A stretch of DNA of 34,613 bases from a virus (lineage: Duplodnaviria > Caudoviricetes), in the IMG/VR virus record IMGVR_UViG_3300027193_000023, positions 1 through 34,613 of that record. One strand, given 5' to 3'. Numbering within the stretch: position 1 is the first letter of the stretch; each line of letters starts with the position of its first letter. A program made the translations under genes and the position numbers. Below the pieces are notes generated by a model, which was not told where the DNA came from, made no database searches, and saw nothing but the letters and a program-made list of their open reading frames with translations. This document shows, piece by piece, positions 1 to 34,613 of the stretch.

Positions 1-1
1 C

Positions 2-106
2 GGCGAACGTCAAGCTGTTAACCAAGACGCTATCGTCAAGCTCATCGGTTTTGCCGGCAACCTCACATCTTCAGGCCCGCAATTCTGCGGCGTTCTGATC
101 GCTTAA
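2..106 (+). CDS. Major capsid protein, C-terminal fragment (redundant copy)
   Basis: Reads GERQAVNQDAIVKLIGFAGNLTSSGPQFCGVLIA*, identical to the end of ORF 32298..32996. Confidence 0.93.
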   Translation, partial: GERQAVNQDAIVKLIGFAGNLTSSGPQFCGVLIA

Positions 107-118
107 AAGGAAACCATC

Positions 119-652
119 ATGGCATATACATTTGACGAACCCCGTTTGGGACTTCAGCAAATTGCTGAAATTAACGACACAGTAGTTACCGCAGGTGGAA
201 CAACTATTGTTGCCCCGCCAGCAGTATTGGGTAGCATTGTTCGTGCGTTTGACCCAATTTTTGGTGAAGGCGAGTTTATCTTGTTGCTAGGTGTTGCAAG
301 CACTGTTGTTGGTTCTGTTGTGCGCTACAACGCTACAACTTACCAAACAACTTTGGTTGTTAACACCGCCGTTCAAGACGTACCTGTTGCAGTCGCTATG
401 TCGGCTTGCACAGCGGGTCTTTATGGTTGGTATCAAATCGCTGGTAATGCAGTCATCAAGAAAACTGCTGTGACCGTTGCACCTAACGTCACTCTGTTCT
501 TGTCGGCTACAGCTGGTCGTGTGAAAGTCTTGGCGTCTGCCGGTCTGCAAGTTGTTGCTGCTCGTTCAGCCAACTTGACTACCGTTACCTCTACGACTTC
601 AACTATTACCGTTACCATCAACCGTCCACATCTCCAGTCACAGATTACCTAA
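119..652 (+). CDS. Putative capsid decoration/cement protein (allele 1)
   Basis: 177 aa, Thr/Val/Ala-rich and beta-like, immediately after the major capsid gene, preceded by AAGGA. Function inferred from position. Confidence 0.6.
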   Translation: MAYTFDEPRLGLQQIAEINDTVVTAGGTTIVAPPAVLGSIVRAFDPIFGEGEFILLLGVASTVVGSVVRYNATTYQTTLVVNTAVQDVPVAVAMSACTAGLYGWYQIAGNAVIKKTAVTVAPNVTLFLSATAGRVKVLASAGLQVVAARSANLTTVTSTTSTITVTINRPHLQSQIT

Positions 653-1420
653 ATGATTGAAGCTGTACTTGATGTTGTAGGGAACACAAAGCCTGACGTT
701 TTGTTGGGCAATGTGCAGCGATCCGTAAAAAGGTCGCTGCCTTGGTTTGATTTTGACGAGTCACCCCAAGGCAGCGTCTGTCTTGTTGGTGGTGGGCCAA
801 GTCTGGTTGACACGATTGACCAGTTAAAAGTCCGTCATCAAAACGGCGCAAAAGTATGGGCAATGAACGGCTCTTACGATCATTTGCAAAGCCAAGGCAT
901 TATCCCTGATGTAATGGTGATGCTTGACGCTCGACCAGAGAACGTGAGATTTGTTCAGAATCCACAGCAATCGACTACGTTTTACATTACTAGCCAATGC
1001 GACGATGCAGTATTTGATGCGTTGGAAGGGTACAAAGTGGTGCTAGTTCACGCCAATACGCCTGGCGTTTATGAATTGCTTGAGCATGAAAAGGCTCGAC
1101 CAGTTCATCTGATGGGCGGGTTTACAACTGTTGGCATCTTGTCGTTGATATTGGCTAAGTTGCAGGGGTTTCAGCGCATCTTTATGTTTGGCATGGATTC
1201 AAGTTACCGAAACGGCGAACACCATGCTTACAAGCAAGAAAGTAATGACGCAGAACGTGTAATTGACGCTATGATTAACGATGTGACGTATAAGTGTGCG
1301 CCGTGGATGGCACAACAGGTAACAGATTTTCAGAATGTCGTAGCAGGCTTTGGTGATGTTACGATTGAAGTATGTGGCGATGGACTTTTGCACGAAATGG
1401 CAAAAGCGATGAGTAACTAA
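653..1420 (+). CDS. Maf/MptE-like (DUF115, CstII-sialyltransferase-like fold) putative glycosyltransferase
   Basis: Family-typical motifs VCLVGGGPSL, VWAMN, PDVMVMLD, TTVG and GFQRIFMFGMDSSY. Confidence 0.75.
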   Translation: MIEAVLDVVGNTKPDVLLGNVQRSVKRSLPWFDFDESPQGSVCLVGGGPSLVDTIDQLKVRHQNGAKVWAMNGSYDHLQSQGIIPDVMVMLDARPENVRFVQNPQQSTTFYITSQCDDAVFDALEGYKVVLVHANTPGVYELLEHEKARPVHLMGGFTTVGILSLILAKLQGFQRIFMFGMDSSYRNGEHHAYKQESNDAERVIDAMINDVTYKCAPWMAQQVTDFQNVVAGFGDVTIEVCGDGLLHEMAKAMSN

Positions 1421-1435
1421 ACTTTAAGGATTATC

Positions 1436-1798
1436 ATGGCATTTCCATCTAGAATTATGGGCGCTGGCAATTCGTCGTTAACTGCACAAGTAATCTGTGG
1501 CGAAGGCGCTGTCGGCCTAGTCGCTACTGGCACAACCGCAGCAGATGCTTTGCAGCTAAACGTATCAAACAACACGATTACGACTTCAGCAGCATCAACT
1601 GGCGTTAAGTTGCCACCTTGCGAAACTGGCGCTGAAATGATTATTCGTAATGATTCGGGTCAGACAATTACCGTCTATCCTTACAATACAAGCACTACAA
1701 TGAACGCAGCTGCCGCAAGTGTTACGCTTGCAAACGCTAAAACAATGTTGGTAAAAGCAACTTCCGCAACTACATGGGTAACATTAACAGGGGCTTAA
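1436..1798 (+). CDS. Small Thr/Ala-rich putative virion protein
   Basis: 120 aa, SD AAGGA, in the structural operon; GVKLP...IRNDSGQTITVYP...TW pattern of small beta-rich virion domains. Confidence 0.55.
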   Translation: MAFPSRIMGAGNSSLTAQVICGEGAVGLVATGTTAADALQLNVSNNTITTSAASTGVKLPPCETGAEMIIRNDSGQTITVYPYNTSTTMNAAAASVTLANAKTMLVKATSATTWVTLTGA

Positions 1799-14329: not shown

Positions 14330-14841
14330 TTAGTAATTGGCAAAAATCGTTCGAGCTGATGTTGAAGTCGGAGGGAGGGTTTGTCAATCACCCGAGCGAC
14401 CCCGGCGGCATGACCAACCTCGGCGTGACCAAAACGACTTGGGAAAATTGGGTAGGCCGTGAGTCAGACGAGGCTGAAATGCGTGGGCTGACACCGGAAA
14501 AAGTTGAGCCTCTGTACAAAAAGAAGTATTGGGATGCCGTGCGTGGGGATGAAATTGAAAATGGTGGTGTTGCATACCTTTTGTTTGATTTCGCCGTAAA
14601 CGCAGGCGTGGGTCGTTCGATAAAGACCTTGCAAACCGCAGTTGGTGTCACGCCAGACGGTGGGTTCGGCCCGATGACGATGGCAGCTGTGCAAGCCGTT
14701 GACCCTGTTGATCTAATTGAGCGATTTAGCCAAGCCAAAGAGGATTTCTATCGGTCTTTAAACACTTTTGCAACGTTTGGCAAAGGATGGCTAAATCGGG
14801 TGGCTGACGTTAAGGTAAAGGCTTCGTCGATGTTGGCTTGA
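14326..14841 (+). CDS. Endolysin, glycoside hydrolase family 108 with C-terminal peptidoglycan-binding domain
   Basis: EGGFVNHPSDPGGMTNLGVT catalytic motif, FDFAVNAG, FGKGWLNRV. Confidence 0.92.
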   Translation: MISNWQKSFELMLKSEGGFVNHPSDPGGMTNLGVTKTTWENWVGRESDEAEMRGLTPEKVEPLYKKKYWDAVRGDEIENGGVAYLLFDFAVNAGVGRSIKTLQTAVGVTPDGGFGPMTMAAVQAVDPVDLIERFSQAKEDFYRSLNTFATFGKGWLNRVADVKVKASSMLA

Positions 14842-15022
14842 ATTGCTTATCGCAGTAAACACAAAGCCCGTCACGCAACGTTGTACAGACTTGACCGCAG
14901 CCATCACAAACAAACTCTTTGGGATAATTCGTTGGGCGTGACCAACGTATCCAAATGGCTGTGGCAACCAATGCGGCAGCGGAAGCGTAAAACACAAACA
15001 TCCAGTCCCATAGCGTCATCAC
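14810..15022 (-). CDS. Small membrane protein with Zn-finger-like Cys pairs
   Basis: N-terminal hydrophobic segment, CDGC and CVYC; last gene of the overlapping leftward operon. Confidence 0.55.
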   Translation of the reverse strand: MMTLWDWMFVFYASAAALVATAIWIRWSRPTNYPKEFVCDGCGQVCTTLRDGLCVYCDKQFKPTSTKPLP

Positions 15023-15297
15023 CAGCCTCCCACACCCATAAGTACCACTTGTTCACGTTTGGCTCTCTCAGCGGCTATACGCATGGCTGGCGATAGCCTG
15101 TATGCCGGCCTGTCAAACTTGTCGATCTTCTTGTCGATGTGAGTCAGGTATTTTTCAAGCAAAGCACGTTCGCCAGTTGGGGCAATACCGCCTAATTCGT
15201 GCGAACACATTGCAAGTGTTGCGGGTCGAGAGTCTGGTAACAAACCTTTATGGCGCAGTTTGTCAGCAGCGGCTAGGTATAAATTAGATAAAGTCAT
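15019..15297 (-). CDS. Hypothetical protein
   Basis: ORF 15019..15336 with probable start at MTLSN (15297); overlaps its neighbours. Confidence 0.55.
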   Translation of the reverse strand: MTLSNLYLAAADKLRHKGLLPDSRPATLAMCSHELGGIAPTGERALLEKYLTHIDKKIDKFDRPAYRLSPAMRIAAERAKREQVVLMGVGGW

Positions 15298-15523
15298 TGT
15301 TGTCCCCAAGTAATTGCGTGGCACGATCAAGACCAACTTCTGTTTGAATCATTCGACGTAGCCTGACAATTGTTTCAGCGTTTAGCAACATTCCCTCCAT
15401 TAACGCTTTGTTTGATTCTTGCAACTGGCGTATCAGCTGCGCTGCCTCGGTCTGTTCTTGATGCGTCATAAAAAACCCATTCTCAAGGTTTCTCAGGATT
15501 TGTTTCGGGCTAAGTGGGTTCAT
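15284..15523 (-). CDS. Hypothetical protein
   Basis: 79 aa helical ORF in the packed leftward operon. Confidence 0.55.
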   Translation of the reverse strand: MNPLSPKQILRNLENGFFMTHQEQTEAAQLIRQLQESNKALMEGMLLNAETIVRLRRMIQTEVGLDRATQLLGDNNDFI

Positions 15524-15731
15524 TGTTTGCCTTGTCTAATGCGTAGAGGGCTGTATACAGATGCGGATGCGTTGTGTCGTTGAGTAGTACGCCTTTGTCC
15601 CCAATGTATCCCGTGGGCTTTAATTTAGCTAAATTGTCAGCAGCCTGGCGATACGCACAAGGGTTGTATTCAGCGTTGCATTTGCCACCGCAAGCCTCTT
15701 TAAACAGATGGATATAGTCGGCCTTAGTCAT
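15510..15731 (-). CDS. Hypothetical protein
   Basis: Probable start MTKADY after GGAGG; contains CGGKCNAEYNPC. Confidence 0.55.
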   Translation of the reverse strand: MTKADYIHLFKEACGGKCNAEYNPCAYRQAADNLAKLKPTGYIGDKGVLLNDTTHPHLYTALYALDKANNEPT

Positions 15732-15732
15732 G

Positions 15733-15966
15733 TCAGCACCCACCTCCACCACCTTGACCACCAAAACCACCACGAATAATAGGTGTAAGCCACGGTTGCA
15801 TATTTTCAGGGTGACGGTATTGCCATTGCGTCATGTTCACCCCACCTTTCACAAAACACAATTGCAAGTGATCTTTAATCATCTTCCATTGCTCTTTAGT
15901 TGGCTCTCTGCCACCGTTCATTTCAACAAAACCTTGCAGCCAATAAGCAAATTGATCGTGGTTCAT
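15733..15966 (-). CDS. Hypothetical phage protein
   Basis: FAYWLQGFVE...PTKEQWKMIKDHL; ATGA overlap with the upstream gene. Confidence 0.65.
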   Translation of the reverse strand: MNHDQFAYWLQGFVEMNGGREPTKEQWKMIKDHLQLCFVKGGVNMTQWQYRHPENMQPWLTPIIRGGFGGQGGGGGC

Positions 15967-16235
15967 AAACGTAATCCAAAAGGGTTGTGGGCGTGTTTAA
16001 CAACTAGGTTTTCGTAATTATCTGAAGATTCTGTAACAGTCGGTGCTTGTCGAATAGTGACATAAACACAAGGTGAGCCACGCCTGCCATCCCCACGTTT
16101 CTCGATCTTGTTATTGCGCTGAAGTTTGGCAAGTTGAGTGTAGATGCTGATCTTTTCAAGGCCACAGTAATCAGCAATATCAACTGTTGTTTTAGGCTCA
16201 ATGCAATACCGCAATATCTTTTGTTCTGTTGACAT
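15963..16235 (-). CDS. Winged helix-turn-helix DNA-binding protein
   Basis: KTTVDIADYCGLEKISIYTQLAKLQRNNKIEK...YVT winged-HTH pattern; first gene after a promoter. Confidence 0.65.
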   Translation of the reverse strand: MSTEQKILRYCIEPKTTVDIADYCGLEKISIYTQLAKLQRNNKIEKRGDGRRGSPCVYVTIRQAPTVTESSDNYENLVVKHAHNPFGLRL

Positions 16236-16254
16236 ATGTTCTCTTTAAAAGGAT

Positions 16255-16283
16255 ACATTAAGTTATCTAAACAGATCAATCAA
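16255..16283 (-). promoter_or_regulatory. Sigma70-like promoter with operator in the spacer
   Basis: Minus strand TTGATT-17-TAATGT; contains TTTAGATAACTTAAT. Confidence 0.6.
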
Positions 16284-16333
16284 GAAGTATTAACTAGGTG
16301 ATAACCCTTACTCTGTTTATTTTAAATATAGTT

Positions 16334-16354
16334 CCCCTACCCTTATACCCACCC
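16334..16354 (-). other. G-quadruplex-forming motif
   Basis: Minus strand GGGTGGGTATAAGGGTAGGGG: four runs of at least three G with loops of 1, 5 and 2 nt. Confidence 0.6.
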
Positions 16355-16645
16355 ACCGTAGTAGTTGAGGATAAATCCTTTACGACAGACCTGTACCTTG
16401 TTAGGTTTATGGCAGGCATCTCACCCCACCCCTAGATTCCCTAGATTGCTAGCAGTCCTTGCAAGCAATAAAGATCAATACCTAGAGTAAATGGTTTTAG
16501 TAGATTTCTCTACTCTGTCTATATCCTGTTCGATTTCTCTACTGGGGCGTGCGGGTCACACGGGATAAAGCTATATAACAAATGTATAACTGACCTGTAT
16601 GGGTACGAGTGGTCACTCTATTAGCTAATGCGCCCTGACAGCTGT
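16355..16645 (-). ncRNA. Candidate structured non-coding RNA / origin region
   Basis: No credible ORF; several hairpins on the minus strand (GUAGA-GAAA-UCUAC, AGGA-UUUA-UCCU) and a 12-bp direct repeat at 16503/16532. Confidence 0.4.
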
Positions 16646-16647
16646 TT

Positions 16648-16763
16648 AAAAAAACAAAAAAGCCGTTTTAATCTGTATCCTGGTGAGAGAATCCACTATC
16701 GTTTTCAAGGCGCAAGTGGATCAGGCTACAGACTAAAACGGCTTCGTTATCTCTCACGACAAC
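16648..16763 (-). ncRNA. Candidate ~115-nt small RNA / attenuator: long hairpin, poly-U and leader-bulge pseudoknot
   Basis: Arms 16660..16697 and 16715..16744 pair; the bulged UCUCUCAC (16683..16690) is complementary to leader GUGAGAGA (16750..16757); a U-tract follows. Confidence 0.7.
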
Positions 16764-16769
16764 AATTTA

Positions 16770-16799
16770 ATTATGCCATCGTCTGTTCCGATGTGTCAA
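16770..16799 (-). promoter_or_regulatory. Strong sigma70-like promoter driving the structured RNA
   Basis: Minus strand TTGACA-18-CATAAT with an extended -10 TG. Confidence 0.7.
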
Positions 16800-16871
16800 G
16801 GTCTGAAGCTAACCTAGTGAAACACGACCCTTATCATTGTTTGTTTCATGCTTGCTAAAGGATTAATCAGT

Positions 16872-17087
16872 CTAATGCAACTCAGGCCAGATTTGTTGCC
16901 AGTTAGGGATTTCTTTTCTTGACCATTTACCGTTTGATTTCTTTTCAAGCTCGGCAGCTAGCAACACTAACTTATCACCAGGCAAACCATTGTTGCGCCA
17001 TTGCGATACAGCTGGTGGACTGACACGGCAGAGCTTGGCTACAGCAAACGTGCCACCTAATGTTTGGATGATTTCTGTTGTATTCAT
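16872..17087 (-). CDS. Cro-like HTH repressor
   Basis: IIQTLGGTFAVAKLCRVSPPAVSQWRNNGLP...IWPEL, a Cro/YdaS-like pattern. Confidence 0.85.
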   Translation of the reverse strand: MNTTEIIQTLGGTFAVAKLCRVSPPAVSQWRNNGLPGDKLVLLAAELEKKSNGKWSRKEIPNWQQIWPELH

Positions 17088-17150
17088 GTAGCAATCTTAA
17101 CATTGGTTGTCAAAGAAACTCAAATAAATATTTAACCTTGAGTTTTCCGC

Positions 17151-17179
17151 TTGCGTTCTGTGTTTAGTTGGCTTAATAT
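17151..17179 (+). promoter_or_regulatory. Sigma70-like promoter for the recombination operon, with operator
   Basis: TTGCGT-17-TAATAT; contains TTTAGTTGGCTTAAT. Confidence 0.7.
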
Positions 17180-17227
17180 TAGTCATGGCATACCCGCCAT
17201 GAACAACGATAAAAGGTACATAAATGA
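17163..17227 (+). repeat. Duplicated promoter/leader unit, copy 1
   Basis: Shares GCTTAATAT, the ATGGC-N6-GCCAT hairpin and the identical 22-mer ACGATAAAAGGTACATAAATGA with 19241..19305. Confidence 0.9.
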
Positions 17228-17787
17228 AAGAATTAGCAAAAGCACTTGTTACGGCTCAGGCAGCAATGTCCCACGCAGCTAAAGACTCCAAAAATCCCCA
17301 TTTTAAATCTGCATACTCTAGCTTGGCGAGTGTGATTGACGCTGTGCGGCCTGCTTTGTCGGCTAACGGTTTAGCTTTTGTGCAGATGTTGCATACAGCA
17401 GACGGTGGCGTAGCAGTCGAAACAGTTTTAATCCATGAGTCTGGTGAGCAGTTGTCTTGCGGCACGTTGTTTATTCCTGCTAGTAAGCAAGATGCTCAAG
17501 GCTATGGTTCAGCGATTTCGTATGCAAAACGCTACAGTTTACAAAGTGCGCTTGGCATAGCGTCAGAGGATGACGATGGCAACTCAGCGGTTAAATCAGC
17601 GCCTCCAAAGGTTGAGAAACCCAAAGGCATAGATATGGATGCAACGGTTGACCAAATGGCGGCAGCGGTCAGCTATGAAAGCCTGAAGGACATATTTAGA
17701 CTGGCTTGGACACAATGCCTGAAAGAACAACAACCCGTCTTGAAAGCAATGTATGACGGAATTAAAGCAAACTGGGAGAACCAATAA
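17224..17787 (+). CDS. erf: ERF-family single-strand annealing protein
   Basis: KDSKNPHFKSAYSSL, IHESGE, AQGYGSAISYAKRYSLQSALGIASEDDDGN (ERF motif). Confidence 0.92.
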   Translation: MKELAKALVTAQAAMSHAAKDSKNPHFKSAYSSLASVIDAVRPALSANGLAFVQMLHTADGGVAVETVLIHESGEQLSCGTLFIPASKQDAQGYGSAISYAKRYSLQSALGIASEDDDGNSAVKSAPPKVEKPKGIDMDATVDQMAAAVSYESLKDIFRLAWTQCLKEQQPVLKAMYDGIKANWENQ

Positions 17788-18239
17788 TGGCTTCAGATTT
17801 AAATCGTTGTGAGTTTATTGGCAGATTAGGTAAAGACCCTGAAATGCGTTATTCAGCGGATGGCAACGCTATTTGTAATTTGTCACTTGGCGTTAATTTT
17901 GAATATAAAAACAAAGCTGGTGAACCACAAAAAACGGTGACTTGGGTAAGAATTAGTGCGTATAGTCATTTGGCTGGCATTTGTGGGGATTACCTTAAAA
18001 AAGGTTCTCAAATTTATATTTCGGGGAAATGGGTTACTCGCAAATGGGTCAACAAAGACGGAGTTGATCAATACACAACTGAAGTGGTTGCTGACCAGAT
18101 GCAAATGCTCGGTGGTCGGCCTGCGGAGGATGCGCCTGCACCAGCTGCGCCTGCAAAACCAAAGTCTGACGCATACCGACAGATTAAAGAGGGGATTGTC
18201 GTGCCTCTTGATGAAATGATTGACGATGTGCCGTTTTGA
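17787..18239 (+). CDS. ssb: Single-stranded DNA-binding protein
   Basis: LNRCEFIGRLGKDPEMRY, YLKKGSQIYISG, YTTEVVADQMQML and acidic DDVPF tail. Confidence 0.95.
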   Translation: MASDLNRCEFIGRLGKDPEMRYSADGNAICNLSLGVNFEYKNKAGEPQKTVTWVRISAYSHLAGICGDYLKKGSQIYISGKWVTRKWVNKDGVDQYTTEVVADQMQMLGGRPAEDAPAPAAPAKPKSDAYRQIKEGIVVPLDEMIDDVPF

Positions 18240-18382
18240 TGAGTCAGTCAGAGGAGGCAATTTTAATATCTTGGCGATTGCAACAATGGTACGAAGGTAT
18301 GGTTTTAGACGCTAGAGCCATGCAAGACTTACAGGATGCAATCGAGATGCTTAAAACTTTAGCTAAACAGGTGCAAAAATGA
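18239..18382 (+). CDS. 47-aa hypothetical protein (not in ORF track)
   Basis: MSQSEEAILISWRLQQWYEGMVLDARAMQDLQDAIEMLKTLAKQVQK*; TGATG and ATGA overlaps on either side. Confidence 0.65.
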   Translation: MSQSEEAILISWRLQQWYEGMVLDARAMQDLQDAIEMLKTLAKQVQK

Positions 18383-19113
18383 TTATTAAATCAGCAGATT
18401 CAGAATCAGGCCATTGGTACGCAGCTGACGGTTCACCAGCGTACAAGATCATTGGTAAGAACGGCAAAGAACGCAACACAACGGTTCGTGACGCAAGGGA
18501 ACTTGGTTTAAAGCCTAGCGTGACAACCATTCTTGGAATTATTGGTAAGCCTGGCTTAAACACTTGGCTGCAACAACAGGTCTTACTGGCTGCGCTGACG
18601 TTGCCACGCATTGCTGGCGAAACAGAGGAAAACTGGTTAGAACGGGTAATGACTGATTCTAAGTCTACGGGCCGTGACGCTATGGATCGTGGCACACAGA
18701 TGCACGGCGTTTTGGAACGGTTTTATCGTGGCGAACAAGACGATTACCCTGTTTATGTTAACCAGGTTGATGCGGCAATCAGAATCCACTTTGGGCATGA
18801 CCAGACTTGGGAGGCAGAACGCTCGTTTGCATACGAAGGCTTTGGCGGCAAGGTGGATTTGATTGCTGAAAACATTGTGATCGACTTTAAGAGCAAAGAT
18901 AAGCTCGACAAAGTTGTGCCGTATCACGAACAACTTATGCAATTGGCCGCCTACCGTGTCGGTCTTGGCAAGCCCACAGCCAGATGCGCCAATGTGTTCT
19001 TTACTGCTGAAGGCGATGTGAAACTTATCGAACACTCGGAGGAAGATTTAGCCTCTGCGTGGGATTGCTTTCAGTATTTATTAGCGTTCTATAAGCGTAA
19101 AAACAACCTATAA
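18379..19113 (+). CDS. PD-(D/E)XK exonuclease
   Basis: PSVTTIL, RGTQMH, AERSF, GGKVDL, VIDFKS, QLAAY motifs. Confidence 0.88.
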   Translation: MIIKSADSESGHWYAADGSPAYKIIGKNGKERNTTVRDARELGLKPSVTTILGIIGKPGLNTWLQQQVLLAALTLPRIAGETEENWLERVMTDSKSTGRDAMDRGTQMHGVLERFYRGEQDDYPVYVNQVDAAIRIHFGHDQTWEAERSFAYEGFGGKVDLIAENIVIDFKSKDKLDKVVPYHEQLMQLAAYRVGLGKPTARCANVFFTAEGDVKLIEHSEEDLASAWDCFQYLLAFYKRKNNL

Positions 19114-19118
19114 TAAAT

Positions 19119-19170
19119 TGCGGGGAAAGCTAGTGTCCCAAACACACTCCTTGTTCGGTGAGTACCCGCA
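19119..19170 (+). ncRNA. Candidate small structured RNA with a loop-E-type motif
   Basis: UGCGGG/CCCGCA closing stem flanking GAA and AGUA; TATAAT at 19109..19114 just upstream. Confidence 0.4.
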
Positions 19171-19240
19171 CCTTGTTGTAAAAACCCCAAAAAGTAAAAA
19201 ATAATTGCAAAAATTAGGGTAAACACCTATGCTTTTATTA

Positions 19241-19305
19241 TTTAGATAGCTTAATATCTGTACATGGCAACACGCCATCAACCACGATAAAAGGTACATA
19301 AATGA
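19241..19305 (+). repeat. Duplicated promoter/leader unit, copy 2
   Basis: See copy 1 at 17163..17227. Confidence 0.9.
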
Positions 19306-19451
19306 GCAAACTGATCCAAGCATTTAAAGCAGACCCATCCGAAAAAAACCGTGCAAAGTTAGCGGCATACTTGCAAAAACACATGATGGCTATTTGTATG
19401 GCAAGCCCAGACGAGCAGCAATTCCTAAAAGCTAACGGGTTTAAGGGGTAA
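19302..19451 (+). CDS. 49-aa hypothetical protein (not in ORF track)
   Basis: MSKLIQAFKADPSEKNRAKLAAYLQKHMMAICMASPDEQQFLKANGFKG*; uses the same ribosome-binding sequence as erf. Confidence 0.7.
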   Translation: MSKLIQAFKADPSEKNRAKLAAYLQKHMMAICMASPDEQQFLKANGFKG

Positions 19452-19454
19452 GCC

Positions 19455-19718
19455 ATGAAACATTCATACATACAGCTAACAGACGAAGGCAAGCGTCAAT
19501 TGATGCGTGAACTTAGCCTTGAGCTTACCGACAAAAAGATTGCAGAGCTGATGGATCAATTTGCAGATGGCGTGAAATTAGACAGTAACGGTGAGCCGTA
19601 TATCAAGATTGACCGTGACGATGTGCTGATGTGCGCTGTGCCAATGTACACACATTTCATTGACATTAACCATATTGAAACCGTGACAGCTAACGAGGAG
19701 GATGGCAGCGATGAATAA
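19455..19718 (+). CDS. Hypothetical protein
   Basis: 87 aa, SD-like AAGGGG, operon packing. Confidence 0.6.
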   Translation: MKHSYIQLTDEGKRQLMRELSLELTDKKIAELMDQFADGVKLDSNGEPYIKIDRDDVLMCAVPMYTHFIDINHIETVTANEEDGSDE

Positions 19719-31982: not shown

Positions 31983-32242
31983 TGACGAATTAGTGGCCTT
32001 GCAGAGTAATCTGCATTGAATAACTTTGTGAATTCGGTGAAACTCTGACCATTAAGTTGAAGACAATACCGAGCCAAGCCCAGAGATGGGAAGGTGTAAC
32101 GACTAGGGTGTGACTACCCGTAGAGCCAAGTGGCTCGAAGTGCAAAGAACCCTACGGGGTTGTGAGATAGTCTGCTCTGCATAGAAATATGCAGCAGTCC
32201 GAAAGGGCGGCAAGAAATTAACGACTTCTTGTGAACATTTGG
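31983..32242 (+). ncRNA. Group I self-splicing intron, 260 nt, ORF-less, IA-like (P7.1/P7.2 present)
   Basis: P1 with U31982.G31993; P3 CUUUGU/GCAAAG; P4 UUCGGU/ACCGAG; P7 GACUA(32101)/UAGUC(32168); P8 with UACG loop; P9 with GAAA loop; terminal G32242; excision restores the frame. Confidence 0.93.
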
Positions 32243-32996
32243 TAGTGGGGCACAGTTTTCGATCACCCAGTACGCTGCTGCGATTTCAATCAGCGGTTTG
32301 GAAATGATCCAAAACAGCGGTAAAGAAGCAATCATCGACTTGCTAGATGGTCGTATGAGCGTGGCTGAAGCACAATTGGCGAACCGTATTTCGGGTGACA
32401 TTTACCTAGACGGTACTGGTAACTCAGGCAAGAACATCACAGGCCTCGGCGCTGCTGTTCCTGACGCACCAAGCACCGGCACATACGGCGGCATCAATCG
32501 TGTATCGTTCTCGTTCTGGCGTTCGGCTAAGTTCTCAGGCGTGACAGATGGCGGCTCGGCTACATCAGCATCAAACATCCAGTCGTACATGGATGCTCTT
32601 GCTGTTCAGCTGATTCGTGGAACTGACAAACCTGATCTGATCGTTTGCGACAACAACTATTACAAGCTGTATTTGCAATCGTTGCAGTCAATCCAACGTA
32701 TTTCAGACGGTGGCAATTCGGCAGTTGGCGCAGGCTTTGCATCGTTGAAATACTACGGCGCTGGTATGGCATCAGATGTGATCTTAGACGGTGGTATCGG
32801 TAACGATGCAACTGCCAATCATATGTGGTTTTTGAACACCAAATACATGATGTTCCGTCCACACGCTGATCGTAATTTCGTGCCAATCGGCGGCGAACGT
32901 CAAGCTGTTAACCAAGACGCTATCGTCAAGCTCATCGGTTTTGCCGGCAACCTCACATCTTCAGGCCCGCAATTCTGCGGCGTTCTGATCGCTTAA
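32243..32996 (+). CDS. Major capsid protein, exon 2
   Basis: The frame is open upstream of the tracked TTG: (I)SGAQFSITQYAAAISISGLEMIQNSG...; 248+754 nt = 1002 nt = 333 aa plus stop. Confidence 0.9.
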
Positions 32997-33007
32997 AGGA
33001 AACCATC

Positions 33008-33541
33008 ATGGCATATACATTTGACGAACCTCGGATCGGGGTTTTAAATATCGATCAAACGGACTCTGGTGTTACAACCGCAGGCGGCACGACTATTCCT
33101 ACGCCCCCAGCTGTTCTCGGCACTATTGTTCGTGCATTTGATCCAACCTACGGCGAGGGTGAGTTCATCCTGTTGTTAGGCGTGGCATCAACTGTTGTTG
33201 GTTCTGTTGTGCGCTACAACGCTACAACTTACCAAACAACTTTGGTTGTCAACACCGCCGTTCAAGACGTACCTGTCGCAGTCGCTATGTCGGCTTGCAC
33301 AGCGGGTCTTTATGGTTGGTATCAAATTGCTGGTAATGCAGTCATCAAGAAAACAGCCGTTACCGTTGCACCTAACGTTACTCTGTTCTTGTCGGCTACT
33401 GCTGGTCGTGTGAAAGTCTTGGCATCTGCCGGTTTGCAAGTTGTTGCTGCTCGTTCAGCAAACTTGACCACCGTCACTTCTACGACTTCAACCATTACCG
33501 TGACAATTAACCGTCCACATCTCCAGTCACAGATCACCTAA
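33008..33541 (+). CDS. Putative capsid decoration protein (allele 2)
   Basis: Identical to 119..652 except for 16 substitutions in residues 10-48. Confidence 0.6.
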   Translation: MAYTFDEPRIGVLNIDQTDSGVTTAGGTTIPTPPAVLGTIVRAFDPTYGEGEFILLLGVASTVVGSVVRYNATTYQTTLVVNTAVQDVPVAVAMSACTAGLYGWYQIAGNAVIKKTAVTVAPNVTLFLSATAGRVKVLASAGLQVVAARSANLTTVTSTTSTITVTINRPHLQSQIT

Positions 33542-34309
33542 ATGATTGAAGCTGTACTTGATGTTGTAGGGAACACAGAGCCTGACGTTTTGTTGGGCAA
33601 TGTGCAGCGATCCGTAAAAAGATCGCTGCCTTGGTTTGATTTTGACGAGTCACCCCAAGGCAGCGTCTGTCTTGTTGGTGGTGGGCCAAGTCTGGTTGAC
33701 ACGATTGACCAGTTAAAAGCCCGTCATCAAAACGGCGCAAAAGTATGGGCAATGAACGGTTCTTACGATCATTTGCAAAGCCAAGGCATTATCCCTGACG
33801 TAATGGTGATGCTTGACGCTCGACCAGAGAACGTGAGATTTGTTCAGAATCCACAACAATCGACTACGTTTTACATCACTAGCCAATGCAACGATGCAGT
33901 ATTTGATGCGTTGGAAGGTTTCAAAGTGGTGCTAGTTCACGCCAATACGCCTGGCGTTTATGAGTTGCTCGAGCATGAAAAGGCTCGACCAGTTCATCTG
34001 ATGGGCGGGTTTACAACTGTTGGCATTTTGTCGTTGATATTGGCTAAGTTGCAAGGGTTTCAGCGCATCTTTATGTTTGGCATGGATTCAAGTTATCGCA
34101 ATGGCGAACACCATGCTTACAAACAAGAAAGTAATGACGCAGAACGTGTAATTGACGCTATGATTAACGATGTGACGTACAAATGTGCGCCGTGGATGGC
34201 ACAACAGGTAACGGATTTTCAGAATGTCGTAGCAGGCTTTGGTGATGTTACGATTGAAGTATGTGGCGATGGACTTTTGCACGAAATGGCAAAAGCGATG
34301 AGTAACTAA
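33542..34309 (+). CDS. Maf/MptE-like putative glycosyltransferase (allele 2)
   Basis: Four amino-acid differences from 653..1420. Confidence 0.75.
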   Translation: MIEAVLDVVGNTEPDVLLGNVQRSVKRSLPWFDFDESPQGSVCLVGGGPSLVDTIDQLKARHQNGAKVWAMNGSYDHLQSQGIIPDVMVMLDARPENVRFVQNPQQSTTFYITSQCNDAVFDALEGFKVVLVHANTPGVYELLEHEKARPVHLMGGFTTVGILSLILAKLQGFQRIFMFGMDSSYRNGEHHAYKQESNDAERVIDAMINDVTYKCAPWMAQQVTDFQNVVAGFGDVTIEVCGDGLLHEMAKAMSN

Positions 34310-34324
34310 ACTTTAAGGACTATC

Positions 34325-34613
34325 ATGGCATTTCCATCAAGAATTATGGGCGCAGGCAATTCATCGTTAACGGCTCAAGTAATCTGTGGCGAAGGCGCTG
34401 TCGGCCTAGTCGCTACTGGCACAACCGCAGCAGATGCTTTGCAGTTGAACGTGTCAAACAACACGATTACAACTTCAGCAGCATCGACTGGCGTTAAGTT
34501 GCCACCTTGCGAAACTGGCGCTGAAATGATTATTCGTAATGATTCGGGTCAGACAATTACCGTCTATCCTTACAATACAAGCACTACAATGAACGCAGCT
34601 GCCGCAAGTGTTA
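34325..34613 (+). CDS. Small Thr/Ala-rich virion protein, truncated by the window end
   Basis: Copy of the 5' part of 1436..1798. Confidence 0.7.
   Translation, partial: MAFPSRIMGAGNSSLTAQVICGEGAVGLVATGTTAADALQLNVSNNTITTSAASTGVKLPPCETGAEMIIRNDSGQTITVYPYNTSTTMNAAAASV

Follow-up and report, generated by a model that had tools for sequence, protein, structure and literature searches.

A folded RNA occupies the place behind the cro-like gene of this phage in which very close relatives carry O and P, their predicted replication initiator genes. The comparative evidence is strong, and on it this RNA family likely stands in for the initiator. We favour the reading that the element acts as an RNA-primed replication origin, with a probability of about 0.55; initiation based on RNA in any form is decidedly probable. 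The window, by which we mean the whole stretch of 34,613 nucleotides that was analysed, is a complete tailed-phage genome of ~32.9 kb (CheckV completeness 100). The phage is described as freshwater and its relatives are uncultured virus contigs. The cro-like gene heads a short minus-strand operon; ERF, SSB and an exonuclease head a long plus-strand operon. PHROG searches on 44 ORFs and Pfam searches on 12 window ORFs gave no initiator, primase, helicase, loader or polymerase, and several small ORFs had no match. GC skew tracks gene direction and gives no origin position. The ends of the assembly overlap (window 1-1724 with 32891-34613) at an identity of only 93.7%, from which we judge that it probably joins two strain variants. 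We also note a group I intron without an ORF (Rfam RF00028, 62.8 bits) at window 31984-32243 (+). It interrupts what is probably the gene of the major capsid protein, between residues 83 and 84; in relatives with a full-length match this gene is intact.

The slot behind cro

In the slot between cro and a winged-helix-like (wHTH) gene (16236-16871, 636 nt) every minus-strand frame is closed. Minus-strand ORFs that reach 46 aa are absent, and the single plus-strand ORF (76 aa) has no PHROG match. This ORF check upholds the claim of an earlier note on this DNA that about 600 nt downstream of cro are non-coding. The order of elements read there on the minus strand (promoter, hairpin/pseudoknot, hairpin-rich core, G-runs, AT tract, palindrome) also stands, all being present in that order. 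The features of the region are as follows.

17224..19113, plus strand: ERF, SSB and PD-(D/E)XK exonuclease; common to RNA-type and O/P-type phages
16872..17087, minus strand: cro-like HTH gene (PHROG repressor/HTH matches); left edge of the exchangeable replication slot and anchor of the searches
16799-16770, minus strand: sigma-70-like promoter TTGACA-18-CATAAT; 11/12 consensus positions, predicted start near 16763
16646..16757, minus strand: leader, comprising a 5′ pseudoknot strand (16757-16750), a terminator-like stem (16744-16660) and a T-tract; from folding and comparison
16600..16641, minus strand: small, variable module M1, from alignments; common to A1 and A2 (RNA families, below), replaced by other modules in some members
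16529..16563, minus strand: 5′ domain of the core, the P1 hairpin (invariant loop UGACCCG) and then P2 (AGUA/GAA internal motif, GAAA cap); covariation
16378..16524, minus strand: central domain of the core, P3 flanked by conserved AUAWA and RUAAAG and enclosing P4-P7 and a pseudoknot; covariation
16334..16375, minus strand: 3′ domain of the core, the P8/P9 stem with its G-rich 3′ arm and then invariant GGGU; covariation
16316..16332, minus strand: AT-rich tract adjoining the 3′ end of the RNA, a candidate either for an unwinding element or for the UP element of the promoter that follows
16296..16308, minus strand: imperfect palindrome; near copy at 19216 ahead of a duplicated left promoter
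15963..16235, minus strand: wHTH gene, right edge of the slot; its FaeA match is weak and below the cut-off

The core, ~235 nt on the minus strand (16329-16563), belongs to a covarying, pseudoknotted RNA family that we name A1. A motif pattern scanned against viral, metagenome and genome collections matched 263 sequences over their full length, which fall into 42 clusters at 85% identity. By eye 23 of the 42 clusters were kept; the 19 dropped as chance include all matches from the genome collection. Ten GTDB pattern matches, the candidates for A1 in bacterial genomes, were judged to be chance. The letters GACCC, AGUA, GAAA and GAA were preset in the pattern used for the search. Because the helices were picked from the same sequences and the shuffles ignore kinship, the following shuffle counts are not probabilities: P1 is paired in 20/20 cells over distinct variants (45 of 5000 shuffles), P2a in 23/24 (8 of 5000), P2b in 10/10 (35 of 5000) and the long-range helix P3 (16519-16515 with 16388-16384) in 44/45 cells over nine variants (0 of 5000), with 0 of 2000 shuffles each for P8 and for the pseudoknot of 16417-16413 with 16393-16389. 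The main structural evidence is the many different pair types per column. The GGGU following P8/P9 is predicted to pair with ACCC of the P1 loop; GGGU and ACCC are invariant, so that this contact carries no covariation. The whole region folds with z -4.2 and the core alone with z -1.6 on both strands (crude shuffle); as the core alone is not unusually stable, the first value comes mostly from the leader, and the case for the core structure rests on covariation. The earlier note had looked to relatives for conservation and covariation, and the A1 core has both. No match to Rfam was obtained with the core from the window or from other loci. As far as aligned sequences tell, the region is a conserved, covarying structured RNA family without an Rfam listing; whatever its role, A1 is an RNA family that packs several pseudoknots into a compact fold and is comparable in complexity to ribozymes.

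The AGUA/GAA motif under a GAAA loop, which we take to be loop E/sarcin-ricin-like, the many G-U pairs and the constant sense orientation behind a promoter place the RNA on the minus strand. The GAAA/GCAA loops and the AGUA/GAA motif are RNA motifs. These features, together with several pseudoknots, make it very unlikely that the active form is single-stranded DNA laid open by transcription, as a primase or primosome assembly signal, even if covariation alone does not separate RNA from DNA. Plasmid motifs of this kind may indeed work as single-stranded DNA, by the account in part of PMC5737381.

The 3′ end of the RNA is rich in G. Four G-runs (16354-16334) form the sole canonical G-quadruplex motif on either strand of the window, and the pattern recurs in 18 of the 23 clusters. 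The motif claimed by the earlier note is thus present as a pattern, but its runs are mostly the 3′ arm of the covarying stem P8 and it is missing in 5/23 clusters; for a G-quadruplex R-loop of the CSB II type, the recurrence of the pattern has to be set beside the pairing of its runs in P8. The G fraction in the last 30 nt of the RNA is 0.43 (0.26 in the body), and 176 of the 217 G-containing P8/P9 pairs have their G on the 3′ side. In the 60 nt after the RNA the A+T content is 0.70 (0.52-0.80 over the 23 clusters). No terminator follows the core in the window; ColE1 RNA II has no terminator at its 3′ end. The palindrome had been proposed as an element of the origin. It recurs before another promoter (19216), and a palindrome-like stretch also follows P in the O/P-type loci L068 and L076; we prefer to see in it an operator of the downstream promoter, probably outside the origin. 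The operator-like palindrome at 19216 accompanies a duplicated 66-nt promoter/RBS stretch (window 17163-17227 and 19241-19305, 86% identical).

The position of the predicted promoter is kept in relatives with and without O/P; by itself the promoter is not above chance (3 sites found, 8.1 expected). Its spacer (window 16794-16778, minus strand) forms a hairpin of 5 bp, which covaries in relatives, has a GA-rich loop and, by its place after cro, is to our eyes reminiscent of a boxB site. In the leader, a hairpin with 23-nt arms (16744-16660) is followed by the T-tract and folds with z -9.4, and the 5′ strand 16757-16750 is complementary over 8 bp to the hairpin loop (16689-16682). The pseudoknot measures 7-8 bp in relatives; a leader with a complement of at least 6 bp is present in 82/83 slots, including 13/13 O/P slots (counts without a shuffle control). 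The comparison indicates that this is a generic leader of the replication slot, and the earlier suggestion of a leader or attenuator specially controlling an RNA replicon falls with it. Since O genes sit behind the same leader in relatives, read-through of the terminator, which the earlier note had supposed, is implied. A transcript of ~430 nt, also proposed there, is compatible with the mapped coordinates.

Exchange of the RNA with O and P

Slots were collected by two cro searches, one with 102 relatives and one with 535, and from each the best 80 were taken. Setting aside 8/160 cro loci in which cro was not located, duplicates and loci with less than 700 nt downstream left 82 distinct slots: A1 in 30, A2 in 28, A4 in 8, O+P in 13, neither in 3 and both in 0. 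One of three mutually unrelated structured RNAs is therefore found in 66/82 slots among the matches listed. The O slots were labelled from ORFs, DUF1376 being confirmed by Pfam in the two scanned. The function of O and P is that of their annotation (DUF1376, ‘primosomal protein’, ‘replication protein P’); the partner of O carries the last label in GenBank MW202520. In addition, 24 whole records chosen for carrying an RNA or P were compared. All 21 RNA-bearing records have one RNA element and no O/P; all three P-bearing records are without an RNA, and two of them have an O match. None of 45 P-like loci (0/45), whose flanks reach 6 kb at most and are often shorter, has any of the RNAs. The anti-correlation with O-like genes that the earlier note had envisaged is thus borne out, both being present in 0/82 listed slots and 0/24 genomes.

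A2 is a second covarying family in the same slot; six of the distinct A2 pattern matches listed were left out, lying in structural genes or having no other A2 motifs. The A2 loci have a GGUGRK loop with two candidate partners, in the 5′ loop and at the 3′ end, both of which change with the loop in L449; this hints at a conformational switch. A4 is Betaproteobacteria-1 of Rfam (RF02932), found at 81-111 bits. It occupies this slot too, preceded by the common leader and to the exclusion of O/P, and is likely the functional equivalent of A1, although the two are unrelated in sequence and the RF02932 model has no match in the window. Rfam lists RF02932 as an sRNA, and its 120-position model covers part of a ~190-nt conserved element; in L059:4489-4614 and L451:2893-3009 strong conservation extends ~70 nt 3′ beyond the model. 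A scan of 151 genomes of one class for RF02932 gave no match; as its control gave none either, the scan is uninformative. Three slots (L513, L514 and L491) have neither O/P nor A1, A2 or A4 and look like further structured RNAs; L513 and L514 have a UGACCCG loop and a GGGUAAG stretch resembling A1, and L491 and L514 have no Rfam match. Many cro-locus contigs end within 1 kb after cro, so that the slot often breaks assemblies. Among cultured phages no carrier of any of the RNAs was found, matches being limited to uncultured spring-water records.

On the cro tree the O label needs 10 changes, at least 8 of them on well-supported branches, which argues for repeated exchange and not for a single loss. 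The O+P locus L076 and the A1 locus L077 are separated by zero-length branches. The promoter-leader-RNA cassette is also found in other places and lineages, with unrelated downstream genes. In L134 and L168 the whole cassette sits after a terminase gene; this location away from cro implies that the cassette moves as a unit.

We looked for a protein that might do the work of O in the RNA-type phages. A decayed O gene, which the earlier note had named as the finding that would speak against it, was sought by tblastn with five O, P and C-terminal proteins; the slot gave no match at E up to 10, and the window holds no remnant of O or P. The slot also has no iteron array or iteron-like repeats. The wHTH gene, considered as a hidden initiator, was rejected on its distribution, being present in O/P relatives and without a tblastn match in 4/11 RNA-type genomes; its single-sequence fold (pLDDT 37) is uninformative. 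More generally, G023, an O/P-type genome, also has all the early genes that the 11 RNA-type genomes have in common, so that none of the small ORFs, among which the earlier note had allowed for a hidden Rep, behaves like a stand-in for the initiator. In L047, L069, L070 and L077 the right operon is reduced to cro, the RNA and one small gene. Several small ORFs without a family match and the uninformative wHTH fold are what can be said for an unrecognised small initiator that the RNA only regulates or accompanies; given the distribution of early genes and the reduced operons, this is the least probable account. Hardly more probable is the loss of O/P by phages that borrow these proteins from co-infecting O/P phages, the RNA being a selfish insert or a helper-recruiting signal. 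Very close relatives do encode O/P, but the RNA types are the majority (66/82 slots among the matches listed), their slot is without iteron-like repeats and their genomes are complete with full structural genes.

The earlier note had called the origin protein-free. The PHROG and Pfam searches gave no initiator, primase, helicase, loader or polymerase in the window, but for the family the term fails: 6/21 RNA-bearing genomes, which are of type A1 or A4 and have records of 25-65 kb, encode helicase and primase. The RNA therefore replaces the initiator and not all replication proteins. In five of these six (two complete, one 91%) no Pol A and no phrog_270 initiator was found. The RNA might alternatively have another job, as antiterminator, regulator, ribozyme or anti-host RNA, in a slot that is a swap hotspot, with replication left to recombination-dependent initiation by ERF, exonuclease and SSB or to random R-loops. 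The co-occurrence of RNA and helicase/primase in larger phages, a complexity akin to that of ribozymes or orphan large RNAs, the early operon position behind a terminator and the high variability of the slot region among relatives would fit such a role. It leaves unexplained that O/P and RNA never occur together and that three unrelated RNAs exclude each other, and O/P relatives express the same downstream genes without the RNA; recombination-dependent replication moreover requires a second genome end or a prior origin, according to sections of PMC3016281. We regard another job as unlikely.

A possible course of initiation and its precedents

From the sequence anatomy, the covarying structure, the strict exchange with O/P and the single copy per genome, all of them observed, we infer the following course. 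Transcription from 16763 would read through the pseudoknot/terminator leader to give the ~430-nt RNA, the core folding during transcription. The G-rich 3′ arm of P8 would stay on its C-rich template instead of closing P8. The displaced DNA strand carries the same G-rich sequence as this arm and would be held by the pyrimidine arm thus set free, together with the invariant ACCC loop. R-loops are favoured by G-rich transcripts, as part of PMC4083084 sets out. The R-loop so formed would persist and end at the AT-rich tract near 16330, providing the 3′ end for leftward leading-strand synthesis. The fork would be built by host polymerases and restart proteins, or by phage helicase and primase where encoded, and ERF, exonuclease and SSB would then support recombination-dependent replication.

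This RNA-primed origin is favoured because of the strict O/P exchange, in which three unrelated RNAs occur behind the same leader and the cassette moves with its promoter and leader, and because no early gene is both universal in the 11 RNA-type genomes and absent from G023. It is favoured further by the RNA-type motifs and covariation, the 3′-sided G bias, the lack of a terminator after the core and the precedents of ColE1, MRB and T4. Several observations count against a primer: the helicase and primase of 6/21 RNA genomes, the lack of likeness to ColE1 RNA II or to PLSDB plasmids, G-runs that ordinary pairing partly explains, a 3′ end of Betaproteobacteria-1 (A4) that is not G-rich, and a fold of A1 that is far more elaborate and invariant than the R-loop origins of T4 need. 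A leftward fork would also run head-on to most genes of the genome, and a crude plus-strand scan gave no antisense control promoter. Small shares of matches occur in 14 sequencing runs; four RNA-library runs gave contigs that carry no strand or end information, one covering the flanking genes too and three consisting of scattered low-depth pieces.

The same exchange with O/P is expected if the RNA is a scaffold and not a primer, its folded surface binding or loading host DnaB/DnaC, DnaG, PriA or RNA polymerase in cis or in trans. The invariant unpaired UGACCCG, AUAWA and RUAAAG and the loop E/GAAA surface suit contacts with protein or tertiary contacts. We note a stand-alone 124-aa protein (L337:3717-4088 (+) and relatives) that matches only the C-terminal part of phage initiators (phrog_270) and is possibly a helicase-loading partner. 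This stand-alone domain, found in 6/21 RNA-type and 0/3 P-bearing genomes, speaks for a scaffold; it is absent from the window, and the conserved G-rich 3′ asymmetry better suits a hybrid. We know of no bacterial precedent for an RNA scaffold as initiator. A scaffold thus appears rather unlikely, and we return to the RNA-primed origin.

The closest parallels to an RNA-primed origin are plasmid and T4 systems. By analogy the element may work like ColE1, MRB or T4 R-loop origins; by the tests run it is a member of none. ColE1 has no Rep protein and is primed by an origin-proximal transcript of 400-550 nt (sections of PMC3035462), and no element-encoded initiator was found in the window phage either. 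The earlier note had drawn on ColE1 RNA II, to which nhmmer revealed no sequence likeness: the best hit of the A1, A2 and A4 profiles on the ColE1 origin had E 4.8 over 12 nt on the wrong strand. A blastn search of the three families against PLSDB plasmids gave nothing meaningful. ColE1 has the antisense RNA I; a crude scan of the slot gave no plus-strand promoter-like site. The phage element differs in having a terminator/pseudoknot leader and in exchanging with O/P, and its priming is conjectural. For the MRB (marine RNA-based) replicons of Vibrio, part of PMC3035462 describes a protein-less region of ~500 bp that suffices, an RNA II of ~465 nt and an evolutionary emergence independent of ColE1; these plasmids of Vibrionaceae are controlled by a 68-nt antisense RNA (same sections). 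MRB replicons have a conserved 110-bp RNA I region, and the lack of a PLSDB match bears on homology to it only insofar as MRB plasmids are in PLSDB.

ARRPOF, PAGEV and GEBRO are structured motifs of 220-350 nt tied to plasmid replication, and ARRPOF lies in a rep-dispensable region and has four pseudoknots, as outlined in parts of PMC5737381 and PMC12990946. They differ from A1 in being plasmid motifs of other hosts, and their Rfam models gave no match at E up to 5 in 14800-19500 and none at E up to 0.05 in 18 other loci. In T4, oriF and oriG combine a promoter with an unwinding element downstream of it; the transcript serves as primer for the leading strand, and phage helicase and primase load on the displaced strand (sections of PMC3016281). 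The slot has a promoter-like site and an AT tract, which may be an unwinding element or the UP element of the next promoter. The formation of the T4 R-loop is sequence-independent and served by a full phage replisome, by the same sections of PMC3016281, whereas the window phage has a conserved tertiary fold and no polymerase was found in it. With the lambdoid O/P module the element shares its position after cro and, in relatives, its leader, but the window contains no O, P, remnant or iterons.

A proposed RNA substitute for a protein initiator

In the literature searched, outside which most subscription journals lie, no paper describes phage O/P genes that give place to a structured RNA and vice versa; pieces of A1 or A2 may be among the 10,000 candidates of PMC10690425. 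Taking the slots together, we consider it reasonably probable that the protein initiator of tailed phages has repeatedly given way to pseudoknotted RNAs that evolved independently, at least three and perhaps five of them, and that open the origin and prime or recruit the replisome. As RNA-only replicon cassettes they would be interchangeable and, within this freshwater phage group, more common than any other form; Betaproteobacteria-1 would be given a function. In the boldest form of this proposal, the folded RNA itself would do the initiator's work, holding the displaced strand, loading helicase or cutting its own primer end.

If true, this would be a new kind of phage origin, with an RNA in place of the two predicted replication-start genes of relatives, and would explain phage genomes that seem to be without replication genes. 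One orphan Rfam family and two large RNAs without a listing would gain a function, and a protein-free origin of ~500 bp could be used as a new vector replicon. The natural pairs with near-identical cro genes, one with O/P and one with RNA, would allow one to ask how an RNA does the job of an initiator. RNA-only initiation, known from ColE1-like and MRB plasmids, would then be mainstream in abundant tailed phages, and of several origins.
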